64,000 bases of DNA from Alphaproteobacteria bacterium (GCA_017511715.1 JAFWJF010000007.1:6421-70420), one strand, 5' to 3'; counted from the stretch's first letter, positions 5,294 to 55,478 are shown. Translations and numbers: made by a program. The notes: a model not told the origin generated them from the sequence alone.

Positions 5294-5310
5294 TATGGGG
5301 CGGGTGACCC
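5294..5310 (-). repeat. Partial copy 2 of tRNA-His 3' end
   Basis: Second tggggcgggtgacc copy; a further fragment gggtgaccagatt at ~5273. Confidence 0.7.
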
Positions 5311-5397
5311 TTCCTCGATACACAATAACAAAAATTAAAAAAATTTCGTAAACTTCAATTTTTTAACATTTTTCTAATTGTGTATTCTCGTATTCGC
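5308..5397. mobile_element. Small IR-bounded MITE-like element (copy A), adjacent to tRNA-His 3' fragment
   Basis: ~90 bp bounded by imperfect inverted ends (cctcgatacacaataacaaaaat ... atttttctaattgtgtattctcgtatt). A near-identical element occurs at ~55388-55478 beside tRNA-Glu. Confidence 0.45.
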
Positions 5398-5544
5398 TCG
5401 GGCTTCGCCCTGTGCGGCATTCGTTAGCACTCGAACTTCGTTACACTCGTTCTCGCTTACTCATAGTCGAACTTTCAGTTCGCATCTGGTCACCTGTCTT
5501 AGTTAAATTAAAAAATGGGCCCTTCGGTCCATTTTTTGATTTAA

Positions 5545-5622
5545 TGGGGCGGGTGACCAGATTCGAACTGGCGACATTCGGTACCACAAACCGACGCTCT
5601 AACCAACTGAGCTACACCCGCC
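5545..5622 (-). tRNA. tRNA-His (anticodon GTG)
   Basis: Cloverleaf with anticodon loop TTGTGGT, extra 5' G(-1) pairing with discriminator C, T-loop GTTCGAATC, 3' CCA encoded. Confidence 0.85.
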
Positions 5623-5642
5623 ATAACTTTTGGGTAAAAACT

Positions 5643-5718
5643 TGGTGGAGCTGATCAGACTCGAACTGACGACCCCTTGCATGCCATGCAAGTGCTCTAC
5701 CAACTGAGCTACAACCCC
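5643..5718 (-). tRNA. tRNA-Ala (anticodon GGC)
   Basis: Acceptor GGGGTTG with G3:U70, anticodon stem CTTGC/GCAAG with loop ATGGCAT, TTCGAGT T-loop, CCA encoded. Confidence 0.85.
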
Positions 5719-5807
5719 ATGCGAGAAAGTATTTTATATTTCTTCTTGCAAAAAGTCAAATCATTTTGCTAACCTTTCTCTATCGAATATATCAACAGGA
5801 GTTTATT

Positions 5808-6368
5808 ATGGATTATTCATCACTGAAAACCGAAGTCGAACAAAAAACAGCCCAAACATTAGAAGTTTTACAAAATGCCTTCGCTGGCTTGCGCACCGGG
5901 CGTGCATCTGTGCATTTACTAGATGGTGTAAAAGTGCCTGTGTATGGCTCTGAAATGCCGCTTAATCAGGTTGCAACTGTTTCAACGCCAGATACTCAAA
6001 CATTATCTGTGACTGTTTGGGATGTTACCAATGCACCTGCTGTAGAAAAAGCGATTCGTGATTCAGGTTTGGGCTTAAATCCAATGACCGCGGGTGGTGT
6101 TATTCGTCTGAATCTGCCACCATTAACCGAAGAACGTCGTCGCGAATTAACAAAAGTTGCCGGAAAATATGCCGAAGAAGCCAAGATTTCCATGCGTAAC
6201 ATCCGTCAAGATGCGATGTCTAAAATCAAACGCGCCGTCACAGATAAAGAAATTTCTGAAGACGATCAGCGTAAATATGAAGAAGACATCCAAAAGGTCT
6301 TTGATGGACGCGGTGTTGAAGTTGATGCAATGGCGAAACAAAAAGAAGCCGATATTATGTCTGTTTAA
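5808..6368 (+). CDS. frr: Ribosome recycling factor
   Basis: 187 aa from ATG at 5808 (RBS aggag 7 nt upstream); conserved Frr sequence; first gene of frr-uppS-cdsA-rseP-bamA block. Confidence 0.95.
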   Translation: MDYSSLKTEVEQKTAQTLEVLQNAFAGLRTGRASVHLLDGVKVPVYGSEMPLNQVATVSTPDTQTLSVTVWDVTNAPAVEKAIRDSGLGLNPMTAGGVIRLNLPPLTEERRRELTKVAGKYAEEAKISMRNIRQDAMSKIKRAVTDKEISEDDQRKYEEDIQKVFDGRGVEVDAMAKQKEADIMSV

Positions 6369-6394
6369 TGCCAAGGACAAGGAAAGGATTTATA

Positions 6395-7150
6395 ATGTTT
6401 AATCTCTTCAAGAAAAAAAATGCAATCACAACCGATACGGCAAAAATACCACAACATATTGCTTTCATTTGTGATGGGAATCGGCGTTGGGCTGAAATGC
6501 GTGGTTTGCCCCCATTGATGGGACACCAAGCGGGCATTTCTAATTTCGAAAACTTGGTTGATTGGTTTATTGCACGCGGTGTTTCAACAATTACATTTTA
6601 TATATTTTCTACAGAAAATTGGAATCGGTCCCAAGAAGAAGTCGATTTTTTAATGAATCTTTTTTACACCGAACTTAACAAAAATATGAAGCATGCGATT
6701 GAAAAAAATTTACGCTATCGTATTTTGGGTTCACGCGACAGATTGCCTGTAAAACTGGCAAAAATGTGTGACAAATTGGAAGAAGCATCTGCAGAAAACA
6801 CTGGCGGAACGGTGGCTTTTGCATTGAATTATGGCGGGCAAGATGAAATTGTTCGCGCAGTAAATGCCGCGATTGAAAATGGGAAACCGGTTGATAAAGA
6901 ATCTTTTGAAACATTTATGGACACTGGTGATTTATTGCCTGTAGATTTGATGGTTCGCACAAGCAATGAAAACAGAATTTCTAATTTCTTGCTTTGGAAA
7001 CTGGCATATGCAGAATTGTTGTTCGTTCCAGAACATTGGCCCGATTTGGTAAAATCTGAAAAATTATGGCAACATGTTCTTGATGAATACCAGAAACGCA
7101 ATCGTCGTTTCGGCGGTGGTAAAAAGAAAAATTATTCGGGGAAAAAGTAA
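6395..7150 (+). CDS. uppS: Undecaprenyl-diphosphate synthase
   Basis: Starts MFNLFKKK; motifs IAFICDGNRRWA and ENWNRS typical of cis-prenyltransferases. Confidence 0.93.
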   Translation: MFNLFKKKNAITTDTAKIPQHIAFICDGNRRWAEMRGLPPLMGHQAGISNFENLVDWFIARGVSTITFYIFSTENWNRSQEEVDFLMNLFYTELNKNMKHAIEKNLRYRILGSRDRLPVKLAKMCDKLEEASAENTGGTVAFALNYGGQDEIVRAVNAAIENGKPVDKESFETFMDTGDLLPVDLMVRTSNENRISNFLLWKLAYAELLFVPEHWPDLVKSEKLWQHVLDEYQKRNRRFGGGKKKNYSGKK

Positions 7151-7151
7151 A

Positions 7152-7823
7152 ATGAAATTATCTGAATTATCTAATACAAGTTTGCGAATTTTGTCAGCGA
7201 TTGCTATGTTAGTGATATTGGCTGTCGTTGTCGCGTTGGAATATTATTTTCCACAGATTCGTGCGGTACGCTGGTTGGCGGTTCTGGTTATGATTGGTGC
7301 GATTTATGAAACAATAAAGAACTTCCGAAACGCGACCAATGAAACGTTCAATGCGCATGCTTTTTATTTCATCCTGTTTTTTGCATGGTTAATTTTAATG
7401 TTGGTTTCTGCTTACTTTGTTGGGGGTCGCCCATGGATTATGCTGTGGCTGTTAATGATTATAGTTGGTGCGGATGTCGGTGCATGGTTATTTGGCAAAA
7501 TATTTGGTGGCGATAAAATGTGGGAAAGATTATCTGCACATAAAACCTGGTCTGGTCAAATTGGTGGCATATTGTGTGGAACACTGATGTCCATCCTGTT
7601 CTTTATGTACATTAAACCATTTGGTAATGATATTGTTTTTGCGATATTGATGGGAATAAGCATGTCTTTGTTATCACAATACGGCGATTTAACCGCAAGT
7701 TTCACAAAAAGGTGTTTGGGCGTAAAAGATTTTGGCAACCTTATACCCGGACACGGTGGTATATTGGACAGATTCGATGGTTGGATATATATCCTGCCGT
7801 TGATGTGGTTTTTCATAGGATAA
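7152..7823 (+). CDS. cdsA: Phosphatidate cytidylyltransferase
   Basis: Multi-TM protein with C-terminal CTP-transferase motif GHGGILDRFDG; ATG at 7152 directly after uppS. Confidence 0.9.
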   Translation: MKLSELSNTSLRILSAIAMLVILAVVVALEYYFPQIRAVRWLAVLVMIGAIYETIKNFRNATNETFNAHAFYFILFFAWLILMLVSAYFVGGRPWIMLWLLMIIVGADVGAWLFGKIFGGDKMWERLSAHKTWSGQIGGILCGTLMSILFFMYIKPFGNDIVFAILMGISMSLLSQYGDLTASFTKRCLGVKDFGNLIPGHGGILDRFDGWIYILPLMWFFIG

Positions 7824-7836
7824 GAGGATTCAGATT

Positions 7837-8895
7837 ATGCACACTATTTTGACCGTTGTTGCATTGTTAATTGTTTTAGGCGTGGTTGTTTTCGTTCACG
7901 AAGCCGGACATTTTATGGCGGCGCGTTGGGCGGGCGTGCGCGTTGATGCGTTTTCTATTGGTTTTGGTCCTGCGCTTGTGAAATGGCACGATAAGCATAA
8001 TACGGTATGGAAATTGTGTGCCTTGCCTTTGGGTGGATATGTTTCTATCTATGGTCAAGAGGACATGTTCAACCGCAAAAAATATCAAGATTTACCAAAA
8101 GATAAAAAAGTCGGACATTACTTGTCTGTCCCTGCATGGAAACAGTTTATAATTATTGCCGCTGGTGTATTTATGAATTTTATGCTGGCTTGGGCGATTT
8201 ACAGTGCTGACTTCATGTTCCGACCACGCAATATCCAGTTGCCTGTTGTTGGTCAGGTTGTTCGTGACAGTGTTGCTTTTAATGCAGGTGTAAAGGCTGG
8301 CGATGTCATAATGAAAATAGACGGGGAAAATATTTCTAATTGGGGTGAATTGATTATCGCCAAAGAATTAGCCGATAAACACGATGCACATGTTTTAATC
8401 GCCCGCAAAGACAGATTGATAAATGTCACACTGATACCGGCAGAACGTTGGGGGCTGATTGCAGACGGCAGCAAAACCATGTTCCGCAACAAGGGTTTCT
8501 TTGGCGCAATTTATTCGGGCTTACGTGAAACATACCATCAATCAAAAACTTTGTTAATCGTGTTGAAACAAATTGTGACGGGGGAACGCTCTTCTAAACA
8601 ACTTGGGTCGTTTATCACTATTGCCCAGGTTTCTGGTCATGCTTTGGAAGCAGGCTTCTTCATTTTCTTGTCGATAATCGCGTTAATTTCTGTGAATTTA
8701 GCGGTTATAAACTTGTTGCCCCTGCCCGTTCTGGATGGTGGCTATTTACTGATTTTGATTATAGAAGCTATCACGCGCCGCAAACTGGGTGGTAAGGCAA
8801 TGGAGATAACTATTGTTATCGGTTGGATTTTAATCCTGTTGTTGTTCGCATTTACTATGTGGAACGATATCGCACGCGTATTTGGTATAAACTAA
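7837..8895 (+). CDS. rseP: RIP zinc metalloprotease RseP
   Basis: 352 aa, HEAGHF zinc motif in TM1, PDZ-like middle, LDGG motif. Confidence 0.92.
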   Translation: MHTILTVVALLIVLGVVVFVHEAGHFMAARWAGVRVDAFSIGFGPALVKWHDKHNTVWKLCALPLGGYVSIYGQEDMFNRKKYQDLPKDKKVGHYLSVPAWKQFIIIAAGVFMNFMLAWAIYSADFMFRPRNIQLPVVGQVVRDSVAFNAGVKAGDVIMKIDGENISNWGELIIAKELADKHDAHVLIARKDRLINVTLIPAERWGLIADGSKTMFRNKGFFGAIYSGLRETYHQSKTLLIVLKQIVTGERSSKQLGSFITIAQVSGHALEAGFFIFLSIIALISVNLAVINLLPLPVLDGGYLLILIIEAITRRKLGGKAMEITIVIGWILILLLFAFTMWNDIARVFGIN

Positions 8896-8906
8896 GAGGT
8901 GTTAAT

Positions 8907-9134
8907 ATGAAACCAAATATTTATAATGTAGAAGCTGGAACAAATATAAGAGAAGCCGTAGAACGTGCTATTTTAGTTGCGCGCGCAAAAAATGCCCCAA
9001 CAATTGTACAATTTAACGGTGCACGTTTCTGTGTTAACCCAGACACAACTTGTCAGGAAGCTATCGACACATACCTTGAAGTAAAGAGAAAAATGTTTGA
9101 AACGGAAAAATTATTGAAACAAAAAACAAAATAA
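8907..9134 (+). CDS. Small hypothetical protein (75 aa) between rseP and bamA
   Basis: ATG with RBS gagg; no recognisable family; conserved position suggests co-transcription with bamA. Confidence 0.4.
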   Translation: MKPNIYNVEAGTNIREAVERAILVARAKNAPTIVQFNGARFCVNPDTTCQEAIDTYLEVKRKMFETEKLLKQKTK

Positions 9135-9139
9135 TAAAA

Positions 9140-11413
9140 ATGAAAAGCAAATCGTTGAAAATTCTACCCTTATTACCTGCTGTGTTTGTTGGCACGGCGA
9201 ATGGTGCCGTTGTTTCGCGCATTGACGTTAATGGTAATCAGCGCATGGATGCGGAATCTGTCCGTATTTTAGCCAACGTAAAAACAGGCGATAATGTCAA
9301 TTCTGAACACATAAACAATATCGCGAAAGATTTACAAGCCAGTGGTTATTTCGAGAAAGTCAATGTACAACTTAATGGGAACGTATTAAAAATAGACCTT
9401 GTTGAATCACCTGTTGTTAATATGGTAACTGTCGAAGGCAACGATGAAATTGATACCGATGACTTGAAAAAAGAAATAAAGACGAAAGAACGCACTTCCT
9501 ATGATAAATCTACGATTGGCGCGGATGTTCAACGAATGCTAACTCTTTATCAGCGCAAAGGTTTCTTTGGCACTAAAATTAATCCTAAAAGAATCGAATT
9601 AGACAACAATCGCGTAAATGTTGTATTTGAAATAACAGAAGGACATCCGACCTATATCAGCGACATTGATTTTGAGAACAACAAAAAGTTTCGTTCCAGA
9701 ACATTACGCAAGGAACTGTTATCGCGTGAACATGCATGGTGGCGTTTCATGACGCAATTTGATGTTTATGACGAAGACCGTATTCAATACGACCAACAAT
9801 TATTACATCAATTTTATATGCGCAATGGCTTCCTTGATTTTCGTATAACAGACGTTAAAGGCGAATTCACAGATACCAGGGAATATTATTCTGTAAAATA
9901 TACAGTTGATGAAGGCAATCAATATAAAATTGGCGAAGTTACAATCGACAACCCTTTTTCCGATGTACCTGATAAAGAATTAAAGCGTGCTTTGACAATA
10001 TCGAAAAAGGATGTGTACAATATTGATGAAATTGATGCAACAATAACCGCATTGCGGGGCAAAGTTGCAGACCATGGATACGCGTTTATAAGTATTGAAC
10101 CAATACCAACAAAACACGATGATACGCGCACTGTTGATATTAACTTCAAGATTCAGAAAACCAATCGCATATATATAAACAGCATCAATTTGCTGGGCAA
10201 TGTTCGTACTTTTGACAGTGTGATTGAACATCATCTGCCTATGCGCGAAGGCGATCCTTTTTCATTACAAACGATTGAAACAGGTCGTCAAAATTTAATG
10301 CACACGCGTTATTTCAAGGATGTTCAAATGGTGCCAAATCGTATGGCAGATGCGAATATGATGAATCTTGATGTAAAGGTTGAAGAACAACCAACAGGCG
10401 AATTGTCTGGTGGTCTGGGCTGGTCAACAATCAATGGGTTTATGGTTGACGCAGGTATCACAGAAAACAATTTTATGGGTCGTGGTCAAATTGTCCAGAT
10501 AAAAGGTTCTATCGCACAATATCAACGGCAGGCCTTGTTTAGTTTTACAGAACCATTCCTTTTTAATCGTGAATTATCCGGTGGTTTTGATGTTTCTTAT
10601 ACACAATACCAATATTCTAAACTTGGCGGTTATGGATATGATCGTGATTCTTTTTCTGTATCTGGCCGGCTTGGTTGGCGTTTAACAGACCATTGGACCC
10701 AGACGATGCGCCTTTCTGCAACATTCGACCAAAACTATGACTTGAATTTAGGTGGCTGGCAAAAGGCAAATCTTTACACACTTGGGACTAATCTGCGTTA
10801 TTATAACCTGAATACAAATTTCCAACAGAATACACATACTGGTCTTGTTGGCAATATAGGCGTGGCATATACAGGCTTTGGCAGCACAAATACATTTATG
10901 CGATATAACGCGGACATCACAGGGCTTGTTAAATTCTTTGATGACAGATGGCAATTCCGCACAGGTTGGGAATTTGGATATTTACAATCATTGGAAAGTA
11001 ATGACTATATACCGCGTGTTTATCGATATTTCCTTGGTGGCGAGACTTTGCGTGGTTTTGATGTTGCAGGTGTTGGTTCGCGTAATTGGTATTATCGTTC
11101 TTATTCTTTGGGCGGACTTTGGAAACTTAACGGTTCGACCCAGATTAATTTCCCGATATTTATACCAGACGAATATCAAATCAAAGGTTTCATATTTGCA
11201 GATTATGGTATTTTAGGACGCCCACCAAAGCAAGAATACGAATTTTATGGCAAACCAAATATAATCGACCAAGATTGGCGCACATCGGCGGGCTTTGGTA
11301 TTTACTGGAATACACCAATGGGGCCGATGAACTTTTCGTGGGGTTGGCCGTTGCATCTTAATAAATATGATGACGAACGCAGATTCTTGTTATCGTTTGC
11401 GACACAATTCTAA
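9140..11413 (+). CDS. bamA: Outer membrane protein assembly factor BamA
   Basis: 757 aa, signal peptide, POTRA repeats then C-terminal beta-barrel ending in aromatic residue (ATQF). Confidence 0.95.
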   Translation: MKSKSLKILPLLPAVFVGTANGAVVSRIDVNGNQRMDAESVRILANVKTGDNVNSEHINNIAKDLQASGYFEKVNVQLNGNVLKIDLVESPVVNMVTVEGNDEIDTDDLKKEIKTKERTSYDKSTIGADVQRMLTLYQRKGFFGTKINPKRIELDNNRVNVVFEITEGHPTYISDIDFENNKKFRSRTLRKELLSREHAWWRFMTQFDVYDEDRIQYDQQLLHQFYMRNGFLDFRITDVKGEFTDTREYYSVKYTVDEGNQYKIGEVTIDNPFSDVPDKELKRALTISKKDVYNIDEIDATITALRGKVADHGYAFISIEPIPTKHDDTRTVDINFKIQKTNRIYINSINLLGNVRTFDSVIEHHLPMREGDPFSLQTIETGRQNLMHTRYFKDVQMVPNRMADANMMNLDVKVEEQPTGELSGGLGWSTINGFMVDAGITENNFMGRGQIVQIKGSIAQYQRQALFSFTEPFLFNRELSGGFDVSYTQYQYSKLGGYGYDRDSFSVSGRLGWRLTDHWTQTMRLSATFDQNYDLNLGGWQKANLYTLGTNLRYYNLNTNFQQNTHTGLVGNIGVAYTGFGSTNTFMRYNADITGLVKFFDDRWQFRTGWEFGYLQSLESNDYIPRVYRYFLGGETLRGFDVAGVGSRNWYYRSYSLGGLWKLNGSTQINFPIFIPDEYQIKGFIFADYGILGRPPKQEYEFYGKPNIIDQDWRTSAGFGIYWNTPMGPMNFSWGWPLHLNKYDDERRFLLSFATQF

Positions 11414-11477
11414 GATTGTTTTGGCTTGACGTGGGGGATGAATTTTTCTTATACTTTTAGAAAAGAAAGGAGAAGAC

Positions 11478-11633
11478 ATGAAAAAAATTTTAGCGATATT
11501 AGCATTGGTAATCGTCGGGTTCTCTTTGGCAGGTTGTGGTCAGATTTATGATGCCGAACCGGTCAGCATTGGCTATGATAACAATGAATTGAAATTAAGC
11601 CCATGCGCATGCATATTGGTATATCGTGCTTAA
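11478..11633 (+). CDS. Small lipoprotein (51 aa), VirB7-like by size and position (tentative)
   Basis: RBS aaggag, lipobox LAGC, sits immediately upstream of a VirB8-like gene. Confidence 0.4.
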   Translation: MKKILAILALVIVGFSLAGCGQIYDAEPVSIGYDNNELKLSPCACILVYRA

Positions 11634-11658
11634 AGCATTATGTTTGTAGGGGGAATGA

Positions 11659-12354
11659 TTGAATTATCCAAATGATTTTGATATAAAATCATTTCCTGCG
11701 GGCAAGACAATCGCACTTTCCCGCAGTGTTTCGATATGGATTTCAATTGTTTTCTTTTTAATTGTTGCCGCATGCGGTTTTATCTTATTTGGCATACACT
11801 ATAAACAAAATTATCCGTTTTTAATATCTGTTGATCCGTTTACGAACGATTGGAATGTTGTGACGTATCCTGGCAAGAACAAAAAGGAAACACTGCAACA
11901 ATACCAAATTGTCCAGGAAAAACTAGTTCGCGATTTTGTGACAAATTGGTTTACAATCACAGGCAATTCACAACAAGACGAACAGCGTTGGCAATCATGT
12001 GATGCCGAAGGTTGTATGGCAAGTGAACAATTTAATCCAGACAATATAAAATGTGCATTGTCTTGCAAATCTGCCCCGGCTGTGTTTGATGAATTTTACA
12101 AAAACGTATTGCCAGATTATCGTTCTTATGCTGGCGCGTCGGGCAAATGGTCTGTTGAACGCATGCTTATCACACCAAATAATGTGAATCAAAAATCTGG
12201 CACTTGGCAGGTTGTGGTATCAATTCAACCTGCTATGTCTGCGCCTTTTGATGCGTTGGTGTTTATTACGATTGAACAAGACCAAAACAAATATCCTGCA
12301 ACTTTGGGGTATTATATAACAACCTTTAATTCGTACAGAATAATAAATGAATAA
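11659..12354 (+). CDS. VirB8-like bitopic membrane protein (NTF2-like periplasmic domain)
   Basis: TTG start with AGGGGG RBS; single N-terminal TM helix; periplasmic part aligns by eye with VirB8 (KQNYPF-ISVD..., ends ...GYYITTFNSYRI like ...GFQVMSYRV). Confidence 0.45.
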   Translation: MNYPNDFDIKSFPAGKTIALSRSVSIWISIVFFLIVAACGFILFGIHYKQNYPFLISVDPFTNDWNVVTYPGKNKKETLQQYQIVQEKLVRDFVTNWFTITGNSQQDEQRWQSCDAEGCMASEQFNPDNIKCALSCKSAPAVFDEFYKNVLPDYRSYAGASGKWSVERMLITPNNVNQKSGTWQVVVSIQPAMSAPFDALVFITIEQDQNKYPATLGYYITTFNSYRIINE

Positions 12355-13012
12355 GATAAAGTCATTTTTTGCAGGTTTGTTTTTATTGATAATAACTTTT
12401 ATTATCATTGTTCTTTGCGCCCTGCTTTATCGTGCTAACGAACGTTCTTCGATAAAATCTTATATTTTTCAAATGAACAATTTTGCGAATCAGCGTGTTG
12501 GCGAATTGCAAGATATAAATGATATTTCTGCCGAAGATTTGCGTAATAAACTGATAAAAAAATATGTATCTGAATATTTCAAGGTGATACCGGGCGAACA
12601 AAATGCTGAAAATCGTTCTGTGTTAGATGCCCTGTCTACCGATGCTGCGTATAAACAATGGCAAAAAGGCGAAGCAAAAACAATCGCCGAAATGTCCCGC
12701 AAGAATATGTTTCGTATTGTCCATGTTTATGACGATGGAATTGCAACATTAAACAGACCTGCCGATTATAATTATACTGATGAAATTGAAAAAAATATTT
12801 ATTATTCCGTTCGTTATTATACAGAAACATGGACGGAAACGAATAAAATGGCAACAGAACCCGTCAAAGAACAAGGGGTTATTTACATTGAAGCCCGATT
12901 CCGACCAGGGATAAGAAAAGATATAGATGTTCAAAAACATTTACAAAAGGGTGAAAATCCAGTAGAATTGTTTAGATTCGAAGTAACAAATATAGGAAAT
13001 AAAGAATCATGA
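12347..13012 (+). CDS. Second bitopic membrane protein, VirB8/NTF2-like paralog (tentative)
   Basis: N-terminal TM, similar size/architecture to upstream gene; overlapping start. Confidence 0.35.
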   Translation: MNKIKSFFAGLFLLIITFIIIVLCALLYRANERSSIKSYIFQMNNFANQRVGELQDINDISAEDLRNKLIKKYVSEYFKVIPGEQNAENRSVLDALSTDAAYKQWQKGEAKTIAEMSRKNMFRIVHVYDDGIATLNRPADYNYTDEIEKNIYYSVRYYTETWTETNKMATEPVKEQGVIYIEARFRPGIRKDIDVQKHLQKGENPVELFRFEVTNIGNKES

Positions 13013-14143: not shown

Positions 14144-14418
14144 TTTTTTATAACCGCACTTTTAATTAAAGTGACATCTTCTTTGATTCCATCTATTTTC
14201 AATTGCAATTGCCCAATACCAGATTCCAATATTGTTGTGCGATTTTCCAGGGCTATTATTCGTTGATCCTGTCTGTCGATTTCTGAAACATAAGAATCTT
14301 GCCGGGCAACCCAATATATTATTCCTGCGATAAAAGCAATTAAAAACCAACTTTCGCGCAGGGTATCTATAAAACTAAAAATATTTTGTTGTTTGGTCAT
14401 GATAAAAGATAATTTCAC
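14140..14418 (-). CDS. Small membrane/coiled-coil protein, last gene of virion-like cluster
   Basis: 92 aa with one TM helix then coiled coil. Confidence 0.35.
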   Translation of the reverse strand: MKLSFIMTKQQNIFSFIDTLRESWFLIAFIAGIIYWVARQDSYVSEIDRQDQRIIALENRTTILESGIGQLQLKIDGIKEDVTLIKSAVIKN

Positions 14419-24902: not shown

Positions 24903-25145
24903 AAGTAATCCTTTTTGTTAAATCGAAACACGCCATGATGGCGTAATTTATAAAAATTTTGTTTTATGGTTATGCGATAATTCGCGCCACAAACACAAAA
25001 CAACACAAAAAAGGGTCCAAAAGAAATTGGATTATCCAATAAAAAATTCAGTCTGACTTTAACATCGGACTGAAAAATTTATCATCAAAAAAGTCCCCAA
25101 AACCAAGCGTTTTAGGGACTTTTATTAAAAGATTTTTTTACAATC

Positions 25146-25466
25146 TTATTTTTTCTTAACTACTTTTTTAGCAGCTGGTTTTTTTGCAGCAACTTTTTTT
25201 GCAGCTGGTTTTTTTGCAACTGCTTTTTTAGCAACTGGTTTTTTTGCAGCTGGTTTTTTTGCAACTACTTTTTTAGCAGCTGGTTTTTTTGCAACTACTT
25301 TTTTAGCAACTGGTTTTTTTGCAACTACTTTTTTAGCAGCTGGTTTTTTAACAGCAACTTTTTTTGCAGCTGGTTTTTTTGCAGCAACTTTTTTAGCAGG
25401 TGCTTTTTTTGCAGCTGGTTTAGCAGCTGGTTTTGCGCATGCGCATTTTTTCTTTAAGCCAAACAT
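25146..25466 (-). CDS. Histone H1-like Lys/Ala-rich DNA-binding protein (tandem AAKKPAAKKVV repeats)
   Basis: 106 aa, ~10 tandem KKPAAKKV(V/A) repeats encoded by 30-nt DNA tandem repeats; N-terminal KKKCACAK. Confidence 0.6.
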   Translation of the reverse strand: MFGLKKKCACAKPAAKPAAKKAPAKKVAAKKPAAKKVAVKKPAAKKVVAKKPVAKKVVAKKPAAKKVVAKKPAAKKPVAKKAVAKKPAAKKVAAKKPAAKKVVKKK

Positions 25467-47622: not shown

Positions 47623-47687
47623 GTCTTTTTCCTGTTGAAGTTTATATTAATATTAGCTACACTTTTCATAAATCGCAAGGGGGAATC

Positions 47688-48929: not shown

Positions 48930-49034
48930 AAAATCTTTAACATATAAACGGTTATAAAAAACACCCCGCAGGCACGGGATGTTTTTAACAGAGTAAAGAA
49001 TCGAACAAATCTTAAAACAAATTGAAGATTACTC

Positions 49035-50726
49035 TTAGAACAATTTGAATTTATAATTTGTCCCGGCGCGGAATGCCACCTGGGTTTTATCACCAGATGC
49101 GATGCCGGCACCTGCATTGACAGACCATCTGTCAGACAAGCCCATAGCCGCACCGAACGCCATTGCTGATTGGCTGTTATAATAACCATAACCACCACCA
49201 ACAGAAACTTCGCCTTTCTTTACATTAGACACTGCAACAGAAGACAATGCGGTCGCTGCCGCAACACCACCAGACAAATTCTTTTCCAGTGTATTGACTT
49301 TCGCATCTGTATAAGAATTGGCTTTCTTTAATGTTAACGCATCTGCATCAGCGATGCTTGCATTTATTTGTTGTTGCAATTGTTGGTCGGCATTTGCGCG
49401 TGCGCTTGCTTCATCAGTAATTGCCTGTTCTAATTCTGTGTCTTTTGCTTCGCGTGCGCTTGCTTCATCAGTAATTGCCTGTTGCAATTCTGTGTCTTTT
49501 GCTTCACGTGCGCTTGCTTCATCAGTAATTGCCTGTTGCAATTCTGTGTCTTTTGCTTCGCGTGCGCTTGCTTCATCATTAAGCGCAGAACTATCTGCCT
49601 TTAATGCCAATGCCGCATCAACATCTGCAACATTTGCTTTGCCACTAATATCTTGGTGTTCTGTCAAGAATTTAGCATCAGCATCTGCTTTGCTATAGAC
49701 ATCGTCGACATTTGCTTTATCATCCAACGCTGTCTTGATAGTTCCAGAAGCGACAGAAGCTTCAATGGCGTCATTTGCATGCGTATCAATTGTTTCTTCG
49801 ATTGGTGCATTAAATATATCTTTTGCTGCATTCAACGCATCATCGTTTTCGCTGTATGCTTCTTTCGCCGCCTGTTGATTTGCCTGTGCTGTTTCCAACA
49901 AACCAGCAGCTGTTTCATAAGAATTCCAATAACCGTTCAATTCTTCGACTTTGTTGCTGTCGGTTGTAAAGGCCGCATCTGCAGTTGCAAAATTTGCCTG
50001 TTCTGTTGTCCACTGGTCAGCAGTAGTTGTTTTTGCGCTATCAACACTTGCAACATCGTTCGCGTATGCTGTTTTCATCGCATCAAACGCATCTGCCAAT
50101 GCCGAACCAGGTTCTGGTTCACCTGCTGGTGTGTTATTGCTGTGATACAACGCTGTTCCATCAGCAGACAAATGGTATGTATCATCACCATCCATTGTAA
50201 CACTGTACAATGTGCCATCAAAAGAATCAGCCGTTCCGTTTGTCACAACTATTTCTGCGCCGTTGGTATAATCAGAATTTAATGTGACGGTTTGTGTCAT
50301 ATCTTGTGCAGAAGTGCCCAATTCGACATCATCGCCTGCGCCGTTGGTATAAGTATAATTGCCACGTTCAACTGTTGCCCCGGAAACGATTTCTTGTGTT
50401 GTCGAAACCACACCAGATGCGGCTGTATCGCCAGTAAAATCACCTTGTTCTTTTGTGCCAGACGACAAATCTGCAGGATTTCCATCTTTATCTGTGTATG
50501 TAAAATCTTCCAATGTTGGGTCTGTTGTTTGATTCGCTACATCGCGTGTTGTGCCGTCTGATTTTTCATACGAATAAGTTTGTGCCGCGACAGCATCATT
50601 GACATTTACTGTATCGCCGTTTGAATTGGTATAATCACCAGCAAACGTAACATCTGTTGCTGCATTTGCTCCGGCGACAGTCGCCATAATAGCCACAACA
50701 GAAGTCAAAATTAAATTTTTCTTCAT
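49035..50726 (-). CDS. Trimeric autotransporter adhesin (YadA-like anchor) with tandem 20-aa stalk repeats
   Basis: Signal peptide MKKNLILTSVVAIMATVAGANA; 3.5 tandem repeats (TDEASAREAKDTELQQAI); C-terminal YadA-like membrane anchor ending FKLF. Confidence 0.7.
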   Translation of the reverse strand: MKKNLILTSVVAIMATVAGANAATDVTFAGDYTNSNGDTVNVNDAVAAQTYSYEKSDGTTRDVANQTTDPTLEDFTYTDKDGNPADLSSGTKEQGDFTGDTAASGVVSTTQEIVSGATVERGNYTYTNGAGDDVELGTSAQDMTQTVTLNSDYTNGAEIVVTNGTADSFDGTLYSVTMDGDDTYHLSADGTALYHSNNTPAGEPEPGSALADAFDAMKTAYANDVASVDSAKTTTADQWTTEQANFATADAAFTTDSNKVEELNGYWNSYETAAGLLETAQANQQAAKEAYSENDDALNAAKDIFNAPIEETIDTHANDAIEASVASGTIKTALDDKANVDDVYSKADADAKFLTEHQDISGKANVADVDAALALKADSSALNDEASAREAKDTELQQAITDEASAREAKDTELQQAITDEASAREAKDTELEQAITDEASARANADQQLQQQINASIADADALTLKKANSYTDAKVNTLEKNLSGGVAAATALSSVAVSNVKKGEVSVGGGYGYYNSQSAMAFGAAMGLSDRWSVNAGAGIASGDKTQVAFRAGTNYKFKLF

Positions 50727-50784
50727 TTTGTTTCCTTTTTTTATTTTTAATATTAAAAACCGAGATTGTATAACCTCGAAATAA

Positions 50785-50812
50785 ATGGTACAAAAACCAA
50801 GGTTTTTTAACC
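50785..50812. promoter_or_regulatory. hix-like recombination site (left): ggtacAAAAACC-AA-GGTTTTTTaacc
   Basis: Core AAAACCAAGGTTTTT identical to Salmonella hixL core (TTCTTGAAAACCAAGGTTTTTGATAA); coordinates approximate (+/-3). Confidence 0.6.
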
Positions 50813-50892
50813 GCCACTTCAACGACATCTAACAAAACGCGCTTTTTCACTGTTTTCTGGGAAAAAATTACTAAATAAAAATTTATAAAAAC

Positions 50893-50920
50893 TGGTTGAC
50901 TTTTAACCTTGGTTTTTTTT
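50893..50920. promoter_or_regulatory. hix-like recombination site (right, inverted): tgacTTTTAACC-TT-GGTTTTTTTTag
   Basis: Same half-sites with central TT instead of AA, i.e. inverted orientation. Together with the left site it brackets a ~110 bp segment between adhesin gene and invertase gene. Confidence 0.6.
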
Positions 50921-51011
50921 AGACCTCTTGACATATTGAAAAAAAGAACTAAATATCCTGATGTAAACAGGCTTTTGCCTGTTTTTTTATTTGATAAAAA
51001 AAGGAGAATTT

Positions 51012-51608
51012 ATGATTTACGGATATTGCCGTGTTTCTACTGCACATCAACACGAAGAAAACCAACATTTTGTCATAGAAAACTTCGCAAAAAACAACAA
51101 TATGACTATCGATGTTTGGATAGAAGAAAAAATTTCAAGCAATAAAAAATTACAAGACAGAAAACTGGGGACTCTGTTAAACAAACTTGAATCTGGCGAT
51201 ATTTTAATAACAACAGAAATCTCGCGTCTTGGGCGCAGCCTATTGGAAGTCATGGGAATTTTACAGAATTGTCTTGAAAAAAATTGCCAGATTTGGACAT
51301 TGAAAGAAAATTTTCGCCTGGGGGCAGATATTCAATCAAAAGTTTTAGCTTTTGCATTTGGCCTGTCTGCAGAATTATCAAAATCTTTATTGCAAGAACG
51401 CGTTCGCGAAAGTTTGGCACGACTGAAAGCCAGCGGAAAAAAACTTGGACGCCCAATCGGTGCAAAATCAAAAAAATTGAAGTTAAGTAAAAATAAAAAA
51501 AGAATAACCTTTTTGGTAAACAAAGGTTTAAGCAAAAACGAAATCGCGCGCATCATGCATGTTAACAAAAGTACTCTTTACAATTATTTGCGAAATAATT
51601 ATATGTAA
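51012..51608 (+). CDS. Serine recombinase, Hin/Gin/Pin-type DNA invertase
   Basis: Starts MIYGYCRVSTAHQ (catalytic Ser in YxRVST motif), ~198 aa, C-terminal HTH (LSKNEIARIMHVNKSTLYNYL), RBS aaggag. Confidence 0.85.
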   Translation: MIYGYCRVSTAHQHEENQHFVIENFAKNNNMTIDVWIEEKISSNKKLQDRKLGTLLNKLESGDILITTEISRLGRSLLEVMGILQNCLEKNCQIWTLKENFRLGADIQSKVLAFAFGLSAELSKSLLQERVRESLARLKASGKKLGRPIGAKSKKLKLSKNKKRITFLVNKGLSKNEIARIMHVNKSTLYNYLRNNYM

Positions 51609-51751
51609 TCACAATTATTAAATAATTTGTCGTGGCACGTGCGCGCACCTGTTCCAAGAATTCAAGAAACGCAGCATAACTGTCTATGGTAAAATTGAAA
51701 CAGATGCAGAAGAAAAAAGTTCTGAAAGATTATGTATCGGGTGGACACACA

Positions 51752-51822
51752 GTTTACAAACCAAAGAGATAATTGCATACCCTGCAATTCACGAGCTGAT
51801 TTTCTGTATGATTTGTTGTTGT
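51752..51822. repeat. ~70 bp direct repeat, copy 1
   Basis: ctgcaattcacgagctgattttctgtatgatttgttgttgtttgggaaagaaattaaggtgtttttgg; near-identical copy at ~53636-53706. Confidence 0.7.
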
Positions 51823-51881
51823 TTGGGAAAGAAATTAAGGTGTTTTTGGAAAATTTATAATTATATAAAACACAAACAGAA

Positions 51882-52217
51882 TTATTCGCGTTTAAAATAA
51901 AAACGACATCCGTCTAAAAAAATATAAATAGAATCTTTACTTGATACGTAAAACTTTTCTGTTAAATTGTCTTCAGTTTTTACAAAAAGTTCTTGAGCTT
52001 TCTCATCCAAATCATATTCTCCAACAGTAAAATTGCGAACATCTATTTTAATATAAGTGTTTGCATAAAAATGCCGCGCAGTGCTTTCACAATCTGTGGT
52101 TATATGCCCGACATATTCAAATTTATCAAAAGACCAGTTACCACATAAATCACACGATTGGCTGTATACAGAACTACAGCCAACCAAAAAAGCAAAAAAC
52201 ACGATAATTTTTTTCAT
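51882..52217 (-). CDS. Small lipoprotein (111 aa)
   Basis: Lipobox LVGC; Cys-containing. Confidence 0.45.
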   Translation of the reverse strand: MKKIIVFFAFLVGCSSVYSQSCDLCGNWSFDKFEYVGHITTDCESTARHFYANTYIKIDVRNFTVGEYDLDEKAQELFVKTEDNLTEKFYVSSKDSIYIFLDGCRFYFKRE

Positions 52218-52290
52218 ACATCACAGTATAAATATTATTATTGTAAAAATCAATATACTCAAATTGACTTTCGGTAAAAAATCACTTATC

Positions 52291-52728
52291 ATGTCAAGCA
52301 TGAGAAAAATTCTATTACCATTGTTATTTTGTTTTATATATTTACCTGTTTATTCAATGACCTATAGTAATGGCACAGATTATTTATCTGGAAAATGGTA
52401 CTTAAATAATGCAGATACATTTTTTGGTGGCGAAATGAGTATTTCTAATTGCTCTGATTCTGTTTGTAGGTTTAATATTCAATCATGGTACGACTCACAT
52501 ATATGTGATGTTGATGGAGAATTATCTATACAAAATGGTTTTGCAGAATATAAAACCACTAAATATGTGTATGACAATCAAACAGGTGCAGAAAATTATA
52601 TTCCTGTTGGAATAGCATTCAATGTATTGTCACAGAATAAACTGAATCTGCGTTATATTAACACAGATTCAGACAATGCTTTTTGTGGTATGAACGCAAC
52701 AGTTGAAGGTGTTTGGATAAAACAATAA
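52291..52728 (+). CDS. Small secreted protein (145 aa)
   Basis: Signal peptide MSSMRKILLPLLFCFIYLPVYS; four Cys. Confidence 0.4.
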   Translation: MSSMRKILLPLLFCFIYLPVYSMTYSNGTDYLSGKWYLNNADTFFGGEMSISNCSDSVCRFNIQSWYDSHICDVDGELSIQNGFAEYKTTKYVYDNQTGAENYIPVGIAFNVLSQNKLNLRYINTDSDNAFCGMNATVEGVWIKQ

Positions 52729-52729
52729 T

Positions 52730-53263
52730 TCAGTATGCATTGGTTCTTTTTGTCCATCCGTTTTTCGCGGTTTCCCAGTTTCGCGTATTTCGTAAATAGT
52801 CAATTCTTTCAGACTTGATTGTTGACATAAATTCTTCAATCTTTGTATCTGGAATCGAATTTATAGCTTTGATTGTTTCTTTGCCTATGACGCCATCAAC
52901 TTTTAAATTTGCATCAGAGAAAGAGTTTATTGCTCTCTGAACAACTTTTCCTGCGCCACCCATAACGTTCATATCAAATACCGCATTACGTATTCTATCA
53001 TTTTCTATTTGCGGTATTCTTGTATTATCCCAGTATTCACTCTTATATATCTCTTTTGCGTGGTATTCTTTTAAATCTTTTACATCCTGCGGAAAATTTT
53101 TATCTGGGTATTTCGCAGAATATTTATCCAAAGTACTTTGTTTTATCCCCATGTTGGTTGCTTCATCTTTTTTCTGGTTTTTGCCAGTTGTATATCCGCC
53201 TTCGCGTTCTTTCAAATTATTATATGCTTGATTGAATTTTTTAGTGTCGTCACTCATTTTCAT
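52730..53263 (-). CDS. GH108-type lysozyme-like protein with peptidoglycan-binding C-terminal region
   Basis: N-terminal EREGGYTTGKNQKKDEATNMGI matches the EGGY...D.GG.T..GI signature of glycoside hydrolase family 108. Confidence 0.6.
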   Translation of the reverse strand: MKMSDDTKKFNQAYNNLKEREGGYTTGKNQKKDEATNMGIKQSTLDKYSAKYPDKNFPQDVKDLKEYHAKEIYKSEYWDNTRIPQIENDRIRNAVFDMNVMGGAGKVVQRAINSFSDANLKVDGVIGKETIKAINSIPDTKIEEFMSTIKSERIDYLRNTRNWETAKNGWTKRTNAY

Positions 53264-53277
53264 ATCTTTTACCTCAT

Positions 53278-53502
53278 TTATATCTGTTTTATTTTCTGGC
53301 TTTTGACCTTTGTACGGTTTGCTTGAAATTGTTCATAGGTCATATCGTATTCTGGTTCGATATATTGACCAGTTGCGTCTTTTTGTAATTGTTCTGGGAA
53401 CAAAGTTCCCAGATATTCATTTGCTTTTGCAAATTCGGTGCTATTTTTATCCCAATAATTATTAGATTGTAATAAATTGCGTAAAAATTTTGGTGTTTGC
53501 AT
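53278..53502 (-). CDS. Small hypothetical protein upstream of GH108 gene (74 aa from internal Met)
   Basis: Table ORF 53278..53589; Met at 53502 preferred because the upstream part is hydrophobic low-complexity. Confidence 0.3.
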   Translation of the reverse strand: MQTPKFLRNLLQSNNYWDKNSTEFAKANEYLGTLFPEQLQKDATGQYIEPEYDMTYEQFQANRTKVKSQKIKQI

Positions 53503-53635
53503 TATAACTTCTTTGTTAAATAAAAAAAAGCCCACACGTGATGGGATAAAATAAGAAAAGACAGCGAATGCTGTCTTATTAAGTTGCAATTATTATATCA
53601 TAAATCGCATAAAAAAGCAATACCCAAAAATCCTG

Positions 53636-53706
53636 TGCAATTCACGAGTTGATTTTCTGTATGATTTGTTGTTGTTTGGGAAAGATGTTAAGGCGTTTTT
53701 GAATAA
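53636..53706. repeat. ~70 bp direct repeat, copy 2
   Basis: Matches 51752-51822 with a few substitutions. Confidence 0.7.
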
Positions 53707-53828
53707 AGCATTTTGAAATATCTTGATTTTACAAATATTTGTAATACAATCTAAGTGTGTAATCTGAACGAAAGGATAAAACCAATGCGTATGTAATATT
53801 GTAATTTTTATAAATCACACATAGAAAT

Positions 53829-55247
53829 ATGTGTCTGTTTAATTGCAATAGCAGAGGTTTTATTGTGGCTTTAATTTCTTTATCAAATGTATCTTTTGGT
53901 TATAACGACAACGATTTGTTGACGGGTGTTTCGATTGCTTTTAATGACAATGAACATGTTGCAATTATTGGCGATAACGGTTCTGGGAAAACAACACTAT
54001 TAAAGTTGTTGGCTGGTGATTTATTGCCTGATTCTGGCAATATTAACAAGAATGCAAACGTGTATATCTTAAATCAAATTAATGTATCTGATTCCAAAAG
54101 TGGTGGCGAACAACAAATGTTTGCTTTAATGAGGGCTTTTGAATCTGGTGCTGATATTTTATTGCTGGACGAACCGACAAATAACCTTGATACAGATGCT
54201 AAGCAAGTATTCTTTAATCAGTTGAACAACTATCCAAATGGCGTTGTTATTGTTTCACACGATAGGGAACTTTTACAACAAATGGATAAAATTATTGAAT
54301 TACAAACTGGTAAATTGGTGGTATATGGTGGAAATTATGATTTTTATCTGGAACAAAAACAGATTGAATCAGACAGTATTTATTCAAAATATATTGATAC
54401 ACAAAAATCTATTGCCAGGTTGAATAATACAATAAATATTGCACAAAACACTCGACAACATCATGAAGCAAAACAAGCAAAAGATATTGCTAATTCCAGA
54501 CGTAGCAGATTAGAAGCAAACGCACTGAAAGGCAAAAGTCAACAGACAGAAGCAAAAAAACGGGCAGTTATCCAAAAGAAACTAATTCAACAAATGGATT
54601 TGCAACAATCTTTGTCTGAACAAATGCGAAACGAAACAATAAAAATTCCTATGCCAAACAAACCTTTTTATAGCAAGGAATTGGTGCAAATATCAAATTT
54701 GTGTTTTGCTTATGGTTCTAAACAGATTTTTGATAATTTTGACTTTACTATGTATGGTGGACAACGTGTTCGTATTGTTGGAAAAAACGGTTCTGGTAAA
54801 TCAACATTGTTAAAAATTATATGTGGCGAATTAAAACCACAATCTGGAACTGTTAAAACATTTGGCAAAATCACATATTTGAACCAAGATTTATCTGTGT
54901 TAGATAAAAGTAAAAGCATAGTTGAAAACATAATGGAGATATCTGGTTGCCTGAAACACGATGCACATGCGATTGCTGCTAATTTTGGTTTTCGTGGTGA
55001 TACGTCGTTAAAAAAGGTTGGTGTATTATCTGGCGGAGAATTGTTAAAAGCAACATTGGCAGCCGTTCTGGGCAGTTCTGAACAACCGGATTTATTGATA
55101 TTAGACGAACCAACAAACAATCTGGAAATCAAAAGCATATCAATATTGGAATATGCTTTGAATCAATATCGTGGCGCAATATTATTGGTGTCGCACGATG
55201 AAATGTTTGTGAAAAATATAAAAACCGATAAAGCAATACAGTTTTGA
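53829..55247 (+). CDS. ABC-F family ATPase (two tandem NBDs, no TMD) with abnormally short first NBD
   Basis: Walker A GDNGSGKTT and GKNGSGKST, signatures SGGE/LSGGE, Walker B LLLDEPTNNLD x2; only ~35 aa between first Walker A and signature. Confidence 0.65.
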   Translation: MCLFNCNSRGFIVALISLSNVSFGYNDNDLLTGVSIAFNDNEHVAIIGDNGSGKTTLLKLLAGDLLPDSGNINKNANVYILNQINVSDSKSGGEQQMFALMRAFESGADILLLDEPTNNLDTDAKQVFFNQLNNYPNGVVIVSHDRELLQQMDKIIELQTGKLVVYGGNYDFYLEQKQIESDSIYSKYIDTQKSIARLNNTINIAQNTRQHHEAKQAKDIANSRRSRLEANALKGKSQQTEAKKRAVIQKKLIQQMDLQQSLSEQMRNETIKIPMPNKPFYSKELVQISNLCFAYGSKQIFDNFDFTMYGGQRVRIVGKNGSGKSTLLKIICGELKPQSGTVKTFGKITYLNQDLSVLDKSKSIVENIMEISGCLKHDAHAIAANFGFRGDTSLKKVGVLSGGELLKATLAAVLGSSEQPDLLILDEPTNNLEIKSISILEYALNQYRGAILLVSHDEMFVKNIKTDKAIQF

Positions 55248-55364
55248 TTAAAAAGTTCGTAAATGTGTAAAACTGTGGATGTTTTCAACACCTAACTTAC
55301 GAACTCACACCAATAACGAAAATCAAAAAAATCTCCGTCTGTCGATTTTTTAAGATTTTCTTAA

Positions 55365-55384
55365 TTGCCCCACTCGGATTTTTT
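55365..55384 (-). repeat. Partial copy of tRNA-Glu 3' end (gccccactcggattt)
   Basis: Matches the 3' end of downstream tRNA-Glu and abuts the MITE-like element; inverted T-arm fragment (atcccggttcaaatccggg) at ~55503-55523. Confidence 0.6.
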
Positions 55385-55387
55385 ACT

Positions 55388-55478
55388 CGCCTCCTCGATA
55401 CGCAATAACAAAAATCTATAAAAACTCGTCATAACAGACCCCGTTTTTATGATTTTTCTAATTGTGTATTCTCGTATT
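55388..55478. mobile_element. Small IR-bounded MITE-like element (copy B), adjacent to tRNA-Glu 3' fragment
   Basis: cctcgatacgcaataacaaaaat ... atttttctaattgtgtattctcgtatt; same ends as copy A at 5308-5397. Confidence 0.45.

Follow-up and report, generated by a model that had tools for sequence, protein, structure and literature searches.

On a 64,000-nucleotide stretch of DNA from an alphaproteobacterium (GCA_017511715.1 JAFWJF010000007.1:6421-70420; hereafter the window), which is part of a 174-kb metagenomic scaffold, two tRNA genes are each accompanied by a copy of the same short hairpin element, here termed E. The original prediction, made from the sequence alone, described an element of about 90 bp bounded by inverted repeats and proposed that it was either a small non-autonomous element targeting tRNA 3' ends or the conserved arm of a family of integrative islands. 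This raises the question of what E is and how it came to lie beside different tRNA genes. We found that E is the conserved core of the gene-less member of a cassette family, that ten tRNA genes across the Rs-D84/Enterousia clade carry such insertions at their 3' ends, and that the cassette arrays are polymorphic among genomes in content, order and occupancy; we regard these points as settled. The gene-less cassette of about 190-250 bp is called the E-unit below, and E is its hairpin element of about 80-88 bp. Our preferred reading, for which we judge the chances to be even, is that the E-unit is a non-autonomous integrative cassette at tRNA 3' ends that is moved in trans, with E as a folded accessory site.

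Two copies of E in the window

The left terminus of E, CTCGATACRCAATAACAAAAAT, occurs exactly twice in the window (5314-5335 and 55394-55415), as does the right terminus, ATTTTTCTAATTGTGTATTCTCGTATT (5368-5394 and 55452-55478), where dinucleotide shuffles gave 0.00 expected matches with three mismatches allowed. The limits and bit scores of the two copies were obtained with a covariance model of E, termed R1 (Table 1), and the predicted presence of one element with exact shared termini at both the tRNA-His and the tRNA-Glu locus was borne out. The termini are, as proposed, imperfect inverted repeats of each other, and both copies fold as single-stranded DNA into a long hairpin whose stability was reached by 0 of 200 shuffles (z -3.7 to -5.5). 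The predicted common order of flanking parts was also recovered, with two parts added: direct copy of the tRNA 3' end, E, a second module, an inverted T-arm fragment, a terminator and the tRNA gene.

At the His locus, the repeated core is formed by the last 14 nt of the tRNA gene (5545-5558). Its distal copy has the strand sense of the tRNA-His gene and marks the distal edge of the E-unit, while the terminator hairpin is the centre of a palindrome with 39-nt arms (5476-5514 and 5532-5570) that are 74% complementary. Beyond this edge lies a decayed older unit consisting of a tRNA-His 3' fragment (5176-5189), a 13-nt remnant of the E left end (5194-5206), a small hairpin (5217-5233) and an internal tRNA-His fragment (5273-5286), which indicates at least two successive insertions at tRNA-His. 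At the Glu locus, the direct copy lacks the last 5 nt, with the terminal CCA part, and ends at a junction GGGG/C, as in loci L012 and L052 (loci and contigs of the comparison sets are cited by L numbers). A further R1 match of 46 bits at 55307-55380 corresponds to a degenerate inner hairpin that abuts the tRNA-Glu fragment.

Table 1. Coordinates of the features of the two E loci and of the M4 copies in the window.
Feature	Position	Strand	Basis or remark
Decayed older unit, distal to the His E-unit	5176-5295	+	sequence comparison
Direct copy of tRNA-His 3' end including CCA (tggggcgggtgacc)	5296-5309	+	identical to 5545-5558
E copy 1	5313-5394	+	R1 92.6 bits; DNA fold z -3.7; predicted as 5308-5397
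Class C structured module (cgctcgggcttcgccctgtgcggcattcgt...actcatagtcg), about 80 nt	5395-5475	+	takes the place of the GC hairpin
Inverted copy of tRNA-His T-arm/acceptor (cagttcgcatctggtcacc...)	5476-5498	+	sequence, inverted repeat
Trailer and terminator-like hairpin, His locus	5510-5537		between tRNA-His and inverted fragment
tRNA-His(gtg), anchor of locus 1	5545-5621	-	ARAGORN; Rfam tRNA 68 bits
M4 copy 2	51783-51857	+	peptide CNSRADFLYDLLLFGKEIKVFLENL, then stop
M4 copy 1	53636-53713	+	orphan C-terminal peptide CNSRVDFLYDLLLFGKDVKAFLNKAF, then stop
M3 inverted repeat (agttcgtaagt...atttacgaactt)	55253-55305	-	usual proximal end of gene cassettes
Degenerate inner E hairpin (caccaataacgaaaat...gattttcttaattg)	55307-55366	+	both outer stem arms replaced at mirror-image positions
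Direct partial copy of tRNA-Glu 3' end (gccccactcggattt)	55367-55381	+	identical to 55571-55585
E copy 2	55393-55478	+	R1 97.8 bits; DNA fold z -5.5; predicted as 55388-55478
GC hairpin, Glu locus (ggtcgtgcgcttcgctccgacc)	55478-55499	+	basal-stem covariation across copies
Inverted tRNA-Glu T-arm fragment (cccggttcaaatccgggggtt)	55504-55524	+	
Bidirectional intrinsic terminator, Glu locus	55537-55558		part of E-unit, not of tRNA
tRNA-Glu(ttc), anchor of locus 2	55566-55640	-	ARAGORN, Rfam

Distribution of E and its association with tRNA genes

Two sets of further copies were collected. The exact 19-mer of the E right end was searched for in GTDB, with each species represented by a single genome, and revealed 95 loci in 74 species-representative genomes, all of them metagenome-assembled genomes (MAGs) of Alphaproteobacteria/"Candidatus Enterousia" (Rs-D84) from rumen, faeces and gut. 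The left-terminus pattern, applied to metagenome contigs, yielded 98 further rumen or gut contigs with 101 E copies, ascertained independently of the genome set. The Rs-D84/Enterousia genomes measure about 0.75-1.0 Mb (PMC12306168), and the available portion of that report does not mention mobile elements. Among 2.9 million viral contigs the 19-mer had no match, and a phage origin of E was accordingly set aside.

The side and orientation of the nearest tRNA gene relative to E are constant in the genome set, where the sequence covered includes a tRNA gene within 450 nt of E for 62/101 copies, with a median distance of 131 nt between E and the 3' end of the gene. Of the metagenome copies, 62 lie within 700 nt of a tRNA gene on the expected side, and the orientation was as expected in all of them (62:0). 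The same ten tRNA species were found in both sets, namely His, Glu(ttc), Gln(ttg), Gln(ctg), Ser(cga), Ser(tga), Ser(gga), Pro(tgg), Arg(acg) and Tyr, and wherever an operon was visible (Ala-His, Asp-Glu, Gly-Tyr) the occupied tRNA was its final gene. No copy away from tRNA-derived sequence was seen among about 200, all assessable copies being next to such sequence. E is thus far from confined to two invariant copies, since occupancy and order vary among genomes, and the first of the two original proposals, a small non-autonomous element of tRNA 3' ends, has gained these copies, a single side and orientation, ten tRNA species and polymorphic arrays in its favour.

These data bear directly on whether E is an ordinary miniature inverted-repeat transposable element (MITE), mobilised through its terminal inverted repeats by a transposase and found near tRNA genes by chance or insertion preference. 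E resembles MITEs and repeated palindromes (Correia, ERIC, REP/BIME, RPE) in size, inverted-repeat ends, hairpin potential, copy number and lack of coding capacity; its imperfect terminal inverted repeats and length of 80-88 bp, the inner-hairpin copies with other flanks and the nesting of a class C module within E would all suit such an element. However, the target-site duplications sought around the 90-bp hairpin were absent, the sequences just beyond the paired arms (CCTCGAT..., ...TCTCGTATT) are constant rather than site-specific, E occurs only at tRNA-core junctions and is near-invariant over 74 species, and no transposase was found. We therefore consider a MITE highly improbable.

E copies of the same genome at different tRNA genes had a similarity of 0.78 (22 pairs only), compared with 0.77 for orthologous copies and 0.72 for the background. 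In the MAG RUG13375, three E copies at three tRNA genes (L008, L054 and L064) share one apical loop, tgcccgctgtt, and the orthologous sites in other species carry different loops, which hints at spread within this genome or gene conversion.

Boundaries of the E-unit and of the gene cassettes

Read in the tRNA sense, every E-aligned locus follows one plan. The tRNA gene is followed by a trailer with an intrinsic terminator, a fragment antisense to the T-stem/acceptor, a GC-rich hairpin (sometimes enlarged) or the class C module, and then E, as AATACGAGAATACACAATTAGAAAAAT, a variable A/T stem-loop and ATTTTTGTTATTGYGTATCGAGG; the plan ends with a spacer of 2-12 nt and, in sense orientation, a repeat of the terminal 12-19 nt of the tRNA that in most cases includes CCA. 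Another terminator often follows. The E-unit thus extends from just past the tRNA CCA to the distal 12-19-nt copy of the tRNA 3' end. What was predicted as a 90-bp insert is accordingly the hairpin of a longer segment that behaves as an insertion, the roughly 190-250 bp between successive copies of the tRNA 3' end. Within the genome set, an inverted tRNA fragment with an exact match of at least 8 nt was present in 82% of units, compared with 3.9% of shuffles, and a direct copy of the 3' end, 8 nt or longer, in 86%, with CCA reached in 34/58.

The class C module recurs after E or nested in the E apical loop (L011/L014, L084, L096), and it also occurs alone, as an E-less unit, in L017 (after tRNA-Gln) and L106. 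The nested modules, of about 80 nt, have CTCG junctions (L096:926-1093, L084:4451-4606, L011:228-382 / L014:1-142), and the CTCG/CGAG motif is shared by the E ends, the beginning of class C and M4, the distal module of the gene cassettes. E-less gene-less units with the same 19-nt tRNA cores were seen at L106:4200-4700 (-), L162:9200-9400 (+) and L017; a second type of E-less unit contains sense and antisense T-arm-like pieces (ggattcgaac / gggggttcgaccc).

Where the tRNA gene lies 0.8-2.3 kb from E, the gap is filled by single genes, encoding a methyltransferase (L017), an RNase_T-family exonuclease (L037) or a GDSL lipase (L071, L091). These gene cassettes are bounded in the same manner as E-units, with a trailer, a terminator and the inverted repeat M3 at the start, followed by the gene, the 75-nt M4 and 7-10 nt of the tRNA 3' end, and the two kinds of cassette together form arrays. 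In the window, the 71-nt direct repeat 51783-51853 / 53636-53706 is M4, which identifies the low-GC region of about 51.8-55.5 kb beside tRNA-Glu as a cassette array; the M4 pair encloses a low-GC segment of 1.85 kb with a GH108 lysozyme gene. In about 27 loci the gene cassettes lie beyond the E-unit, and in about eight they separate E from the tRNA; most of the distal genes point towards the tRNA. Genes farther out encode GNAT acetyltransferases, phage-type lysozymes, an amidase and a GT8 glycosyltransferase, and a restriction-modification pair, R.HinP1I and a C5 methyltransferase, is also among the array genes, the locus of the R.HinP1I-family open reading frame (ORF) being unassigned. The second original proposal, an arm of integrative islands, holds in so far as E occupies the place where gene cassettes have their conserved arm M4; it fails in that these are one-gene cassettes rather than islands, are not linked to an integrase and share their sites with E-less units.

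Half-E sites that abut cargo were found in L033, L052 and L069. Within L033:4985-8000 (tRNA-sense), the C5 cytosine methyltransferase gene begins about 110 nt past a half-E, and within L069:873-2084 a choloylglycine (bile-salt) hydrolase gene ends directly at one. The inner hairpin is joined to the core at GGGG/C, with the outer arms replaced at mirror-image positions, in the window (55307-55380), L012, L034 and L052.

Rearrangement of the cassette arrays

Comparison of arrays revealed changes in both order and occupancy. A GDSL cassette of 979 nt, 98.2% identical in the two loci, is distal to the E-unit in L025 and between tRNA-Glu and the E-unit in L071, and the terminator "tcaccttttggtga" stands immediately ahead of the E-unit in both. 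Likewise, L044 contains an E-unit nearly identical to that of the window, with the same terminator ahead, behind an M4-type cassette instead of a tRNA gene. Because the terminator keeps with the E-unit in both comparisons, insertion takes place right after or within the terminal ...CCA, and the incoming unit supplies the new trailer and terminator of the tRNA. The cores of M4-type cassettes differ from the tRNA at two positions (GGCCCTGCCA vs GGGGCTGCCA), which places the exchange within roughly CTGCCA and the first trailer bases. Identical tandem E-units were found in L038, L083 and L085, with periods of 187, 248 and 259 nt. At tRNA-Ser(tga), the genes of which were captured incidentally, L060 is empty, L162 has one E-less unit, L106 has two E-less units ending in one and the same 19-nt core, and L028 has a unit with class C and E.

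Another source of such differences might be homologous exchange, in which DNA is taken up naturally and recombined by RecA-dependent double crossover, with the tRNA gene, E, M3 and M4 as conserved homology anchors, and the core repeats are fossils of ancient integrations. The lack of a linked recombinase in 1.25 Mb (see below), the near-invariance of tRNA and E across species, which could let them act as crossover sites, and the use of the same ten sites throughout the clade agree with this explanation. However, gain and loss occur exactly at cores of 14-19 nt, too short for efficient homologous recombination; one and the same cassette occurs now on one side of the E-unit and now on the other, identical units lie in tandem, and the conservation of E itself is left unexplained. 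We regard homologous exchange as distinctly unlikely.

Folding of E and its strand

The computed fold of E has an outer stem of 3 bp and 8 bp with a 3-nt bulge, a 3x3 internal loop, an inner stem of 6-7 bp and a variable apical stem-loop. Little or no variation was seen across 72 distinct genome copies in the outer stem (10 bp), the inner stem, the 3x3 loop or the unpaired ends, and the hairpin ends CCTCGATACRCAAT ... ATTGTGTATTCTCGTATT are present in 72/72 aligned copies. Because the right arm had been fixed by the 19-mer search, its conservation was judged from the left-end-ascertained set, in which 55/78 copies were exact and the others had one to three differences. Compensatory changes were evident: one inner-stem pair is changed from C-G to T-A at both positions in six copies, and the apical stems fall into types that are each still paired (ATAAAAAC/GTTTTTAT, AAAAAATC/GATTTTTT and AAAAAATT/AATTTTTT). 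Five covarying states of the basal stem occur in the GC hairpin around a conserved TGCG...CTC, and the length of its apical stem differs among copies. The fold of the whole E-unit had a z of -3.6.

At one position of the left arm, 42 copies have A and 35 have G, opposite a right-arm partner that is T (with a single C); the G variant thus gives G.T on the window + strand and would give C.A on the tRNA-sense strand. Folding of the + strand, antisense to the tRNA, is the simplest account of this difference. The strand signal elsewhere is weak, and the asymmetry in the GC hairpin was not significant.

The same observations suit a structured RNA. E-units might be transcribed from the window + strand, antisense to the tRNA, as the 3' untranslated region or end of cassette transcripts that converge on the tRNA; such an RNA would hold 14-19 nt complementary to the tRNA 3' end in its closing stem, end at the bidirectional terminator and act at the RNA level, for instance in insulation, stability or tRNA sensing or binding. 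Three covarying helices, the wobble asymmetry in favour of the + strand, the prevailing direction of the distal genes towards the tRNA, the bidirectional terminator that comes next on this strand and the extreme conservation of the termini over 74 species are consistent with it. However, promoter-like sites inside or ahead of E-units were no more frequent than chance, and in Rfam 15 only five tRNAs passed, the best sub-threshold matches over the units reaching at most 25 bits, far under the cut-offs. The + strand RNA also leaves the tRNA-core boundaries, the changing order relative to gene cassettes and the tandem units unexplained, and sense-oriented cassettes lie distal to many E-units. On balance we consider it unlikely, although it is the strongest of the alternatives.

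On the opposite, tRNA-sense strand, the E-unit could be a tRNA-like RNA derived from read-through tRNA transcripts, with a closing stem that mimics an acceptor/T minihelix and a NCCA end. The closing stem does end in a discriminator and CCA, followed in many units by the unit's own terminator, and the stable fold of the whole unit would be expected of such an RNA. Yet the polymorphic pair places a C.A mismatch in the middle of the 10-bp E stem in about 45% of copies on this strand, E is intact where the CCA end has been lost (the Glu unit of the window, L025 and L017), and the unit is situated beyond a terminator. A tRNA-like RNA is thus scarcely credible.

Search for a recombinase

All ORFs of 742 kb and 506 kb, about 1.25 Mb around about 200 E copies, were searched by phmmer with the resolvase of the window and an E. 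coli XerD sequence, which restricts sensitivity to XerD-like and resolvase-like proteins. Within these limits no tyrosine recombinase linked to the arrays was detected. The one match is a classical integrase at L014:5933-7504, about 400 nt downstream of tRNA-Arg(tct) and with no adjoining E, and it is apparently unrelated to the E arrays. A Pfam scan took in 149 clusters of neighbouring ORFs, for which 25 families were listed, and ten ORFs singly; integrase, recombinase and primase/helicase families were absent from the 25 listed and from the ten. In the ten kb of scaffold past each window edge, only housekeeping genes and no recombinase were found.

The window itself encodes a small serine recombinase (Resolvase and HTH_7 domains) at 50991-51608 (+), at the far end of the tRNA-Glu array. 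It was considered as the recombinase of the arrays and rejected, with no homologs in the 95 genome and 98 metagenome loci. About 170 nt beyond its stop codon, a palindrome, GAATTGCAgggtaTGCAATT, lies in the M4 box at 51771-51790.

These searches also bear on the proposal that E-units are inert scars, attR remnants of integrase-carrying islands or prophages formerly present at these tRNA genes. Direct repeats of a tRNA 3' end are a hallmark of such islands, a classical integrase does lie beside tRNA-Arg(tct) in L014, and decayed units such as 5176-5295 occur. Against this, the termini, unlike the loops and flanks, are invariant or nearly so over 74 species, compensatory changes are present in the hairpins, E is missing from the viral contigs, the units are without integrase fragments, and the architecture is identical at ten different tRNA genes. 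This explanation is disfavoured, and we consider it very improbable.

A model for insertion at tRNA 3' ends

An incoming E-unit gives the tRNA a new trailer and terminator and displaces older units outward. Under our preferred reading, integration would occur by site-specific recombination in the 6-9 bp around ...CCA, through an enzyme encoded elsewhere in the 0.75-1-Mb genome. E would serve as a cis-acting accessory or arm site, recognised in its folded single-stranded form (the window + strand), and would resemble in its logic an integron attC or the folded attP of CTX phage. Gene cassettes may land preferentially on E together with the core, which would account for the position of most of them beyond the E-unit.

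Several observations weigh against this model. No recombinase has been identified, and the central mechanistic step is one that we infer. E-less gene-less units, with class C only or of another type, lie at the same cores, so that integration cannot depend on E, which may be cargo-like. The whole clade uses only ten tRNA sites and many loci are orthologous, and the pattern could therefore be largely old and vertically inherited. The covariation of every hairpin suits a structured RNA as well as a folded DNA, and the strand asymmetry comes mainly from one polymorphic position, with none in the GC hairpin. Neither excised circles nor empty and occupied pairs within one species were seen, and the His locus of the window is identical in L002 and L003, contigs from other samples. 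It is because E-less units also insert and because covariation fits RNA equally that we place site-specific movement in trans with a folded E no higher than an even chance. The alternatives rank below it in the order + strand RNA, homologous exchange, inert scars, MITE and tRNA-like RNA.

A bolder form of the model is possible, which we hold only tentatively and think more likely wrong than right: integron-like gene capture without a linked integrase, in which one-gene and gene-less cassettes are exchanged at about ten tRNA 3' ends and the invariant E hairpin, folded from one DNA strand, is read by an unlinked and possibly housekeeping recombinase. The orphan, codon-constrained peptide tail of M4 on the strand of E (see below) hints at a further layer.

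Comparison with known integrative systems

Genomic islands target tRNA 3' ends by means of tyrosine integrases, for example P4-type integrases, and Williams in 2002 reportedly distinguished sublocation classes of integration into tRNA genes. The E family shares with these islands the direct repeat of the tRNA 3' end that bounds each unit (5296-5309 = 5545-5558; 55367-55381 = 55571-55585), the restoration of the tRNA 3' end by the insert, tandem stacking at one tRNA with newer units closer to it, and presence/absence polymorphism at the attachment site (tRNA-Ser(tga); L025 vs L071 for order). In contrast, E-family units are 0.2-2 kb with zero or one gene, no integrase in cis was found by the XerD-like/resolvase-like search of about 1.25 Mb, and E-units add an inverted tRNA fragment beyond the terminator and a conserved folded hairpin.

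The tycheposons of Prochlorococcus (bioRxiv 10.1101/2020.12.28.424599) are, in the available portion of that preprint, similar in their streamlined hosts, in a few tRNA genes that seed variable cargo arrays flanked by partial tRNAs, and in successive integrations that displace older elements outward. They carry tyrosine or large serine recombinases and replication genes, whereas no recombinase or primase/helicase family was among the Pfam families listed near E, and neither a conserved hairpin module nor a gene-less 200-bp unit is described in that portion.

Integron cassettes are likewise mostly one-gene cassettes in arrays, and arrays without a neighbouring integrase (CALINs) are also found among integrons. 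E is similar to attC as an imperfect hairpin with paired basal boxes, an unpaired spacer, bulged bases and a variable terminal stem-loop, of which one strand appears to fold. However, RYYYAAC/GTTRRRY core sites are absent from the 72 aligned E copies, the head of the array is a tRNA gene rather than attI with no intI nearby, and E-family cassettes carry their own terminators and copies of the tRNA core and include E-less members.

As proposed here for E, integrative mobile elements exploiting Xer (IMEX) and CTX phage are non-autonomous and depend on a host-encoded recombinase. The CTX attP hairpin rebuilds a duplex of the chromosomal target, for which the counterpart here would be the core, terminator and inverted core. 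IMEX differ in that they target dif with XerCD, and E-units use ten tRNA targets; no dif-like sequence was spotted in E by eye against a dif consensus, which may not be that of the host.

Our search of the available literature revealed no specific description of a system of this kind. E-units are a kind of integrative cassette at tRNA genes, and there is a fair chance that their mechanism is more unusual than that. The arrays would be the main site of accessory gene gain and loss in genomes of about 0.75-1 Mb, with a cargo that ranges over bile-salt hydrolase, a restriction-modification system, GNAT acetyltransferases, cell-wall hydrolases and methyltransferases. If an enzyme in trans does move structured cassettes of about 200 bp, it would constitute a compact system of site-specific integration whose cis element is defined, and a third kind of streamlined genome would offer a counterpart to tycheposons and integrons. 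E is in any case a ready marker, as its 19-mer locates the arrays in any rumen or gut metagenome.

The M4 module and other features of the window

M4, in the window and in about 30 further copies in L007-L091, is protein-coding on the strand antisense to the tRNA. The peptide reads (F)WQGHL-CNSRxDFxxDLLxFGKEIKVFL.. to a stop, in a frame that crosses the antisense of the tRNA 3' end, and codon periodicity is marked (entropy 0.46/0.33/0.79 at codon positions 1/2/3). The reading frame has neither a start codon nor an N-terminal body. We considered M4 as the tail of a full-length gene, perhaps an integrase, and rejected it: a word-indexed search gave five short ORFs and no full-length parent gene, and a profile search of 1.84 billion proteins gave 75 matches, almost all of 34-138 aa with junk N-termini, again with no full-length parent. 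Two longer proteins, P0053 (443 aa) and P0075 (266 aa), were matched over several stretches and resemble weak or repeat hits. The M4 motif of P0069 (201 aa) lies near the N-terminus, and the frame runs into sequence that was judged by eye to be nucleotide-cyclase-like.

Two repeat-rich genes were also observed in the window. At 25090-25451, at least 16 tandem copies with a 15-nt period lie inside an ORF (25146-25466, -), which suggests a pentapeptide-repeat-like stretch. Beside the tRNA cluster, 56214-61142 (-) encodes a protein of 1642 aa and contains internal repeats, of about 1.06-1.09 kb and of 87 nt. Matches of the protein to the Listeria-Bacteroides repeat and BspA-type LRR (leucine-rich repeat) families suggest that it is probably located at the cell surface.

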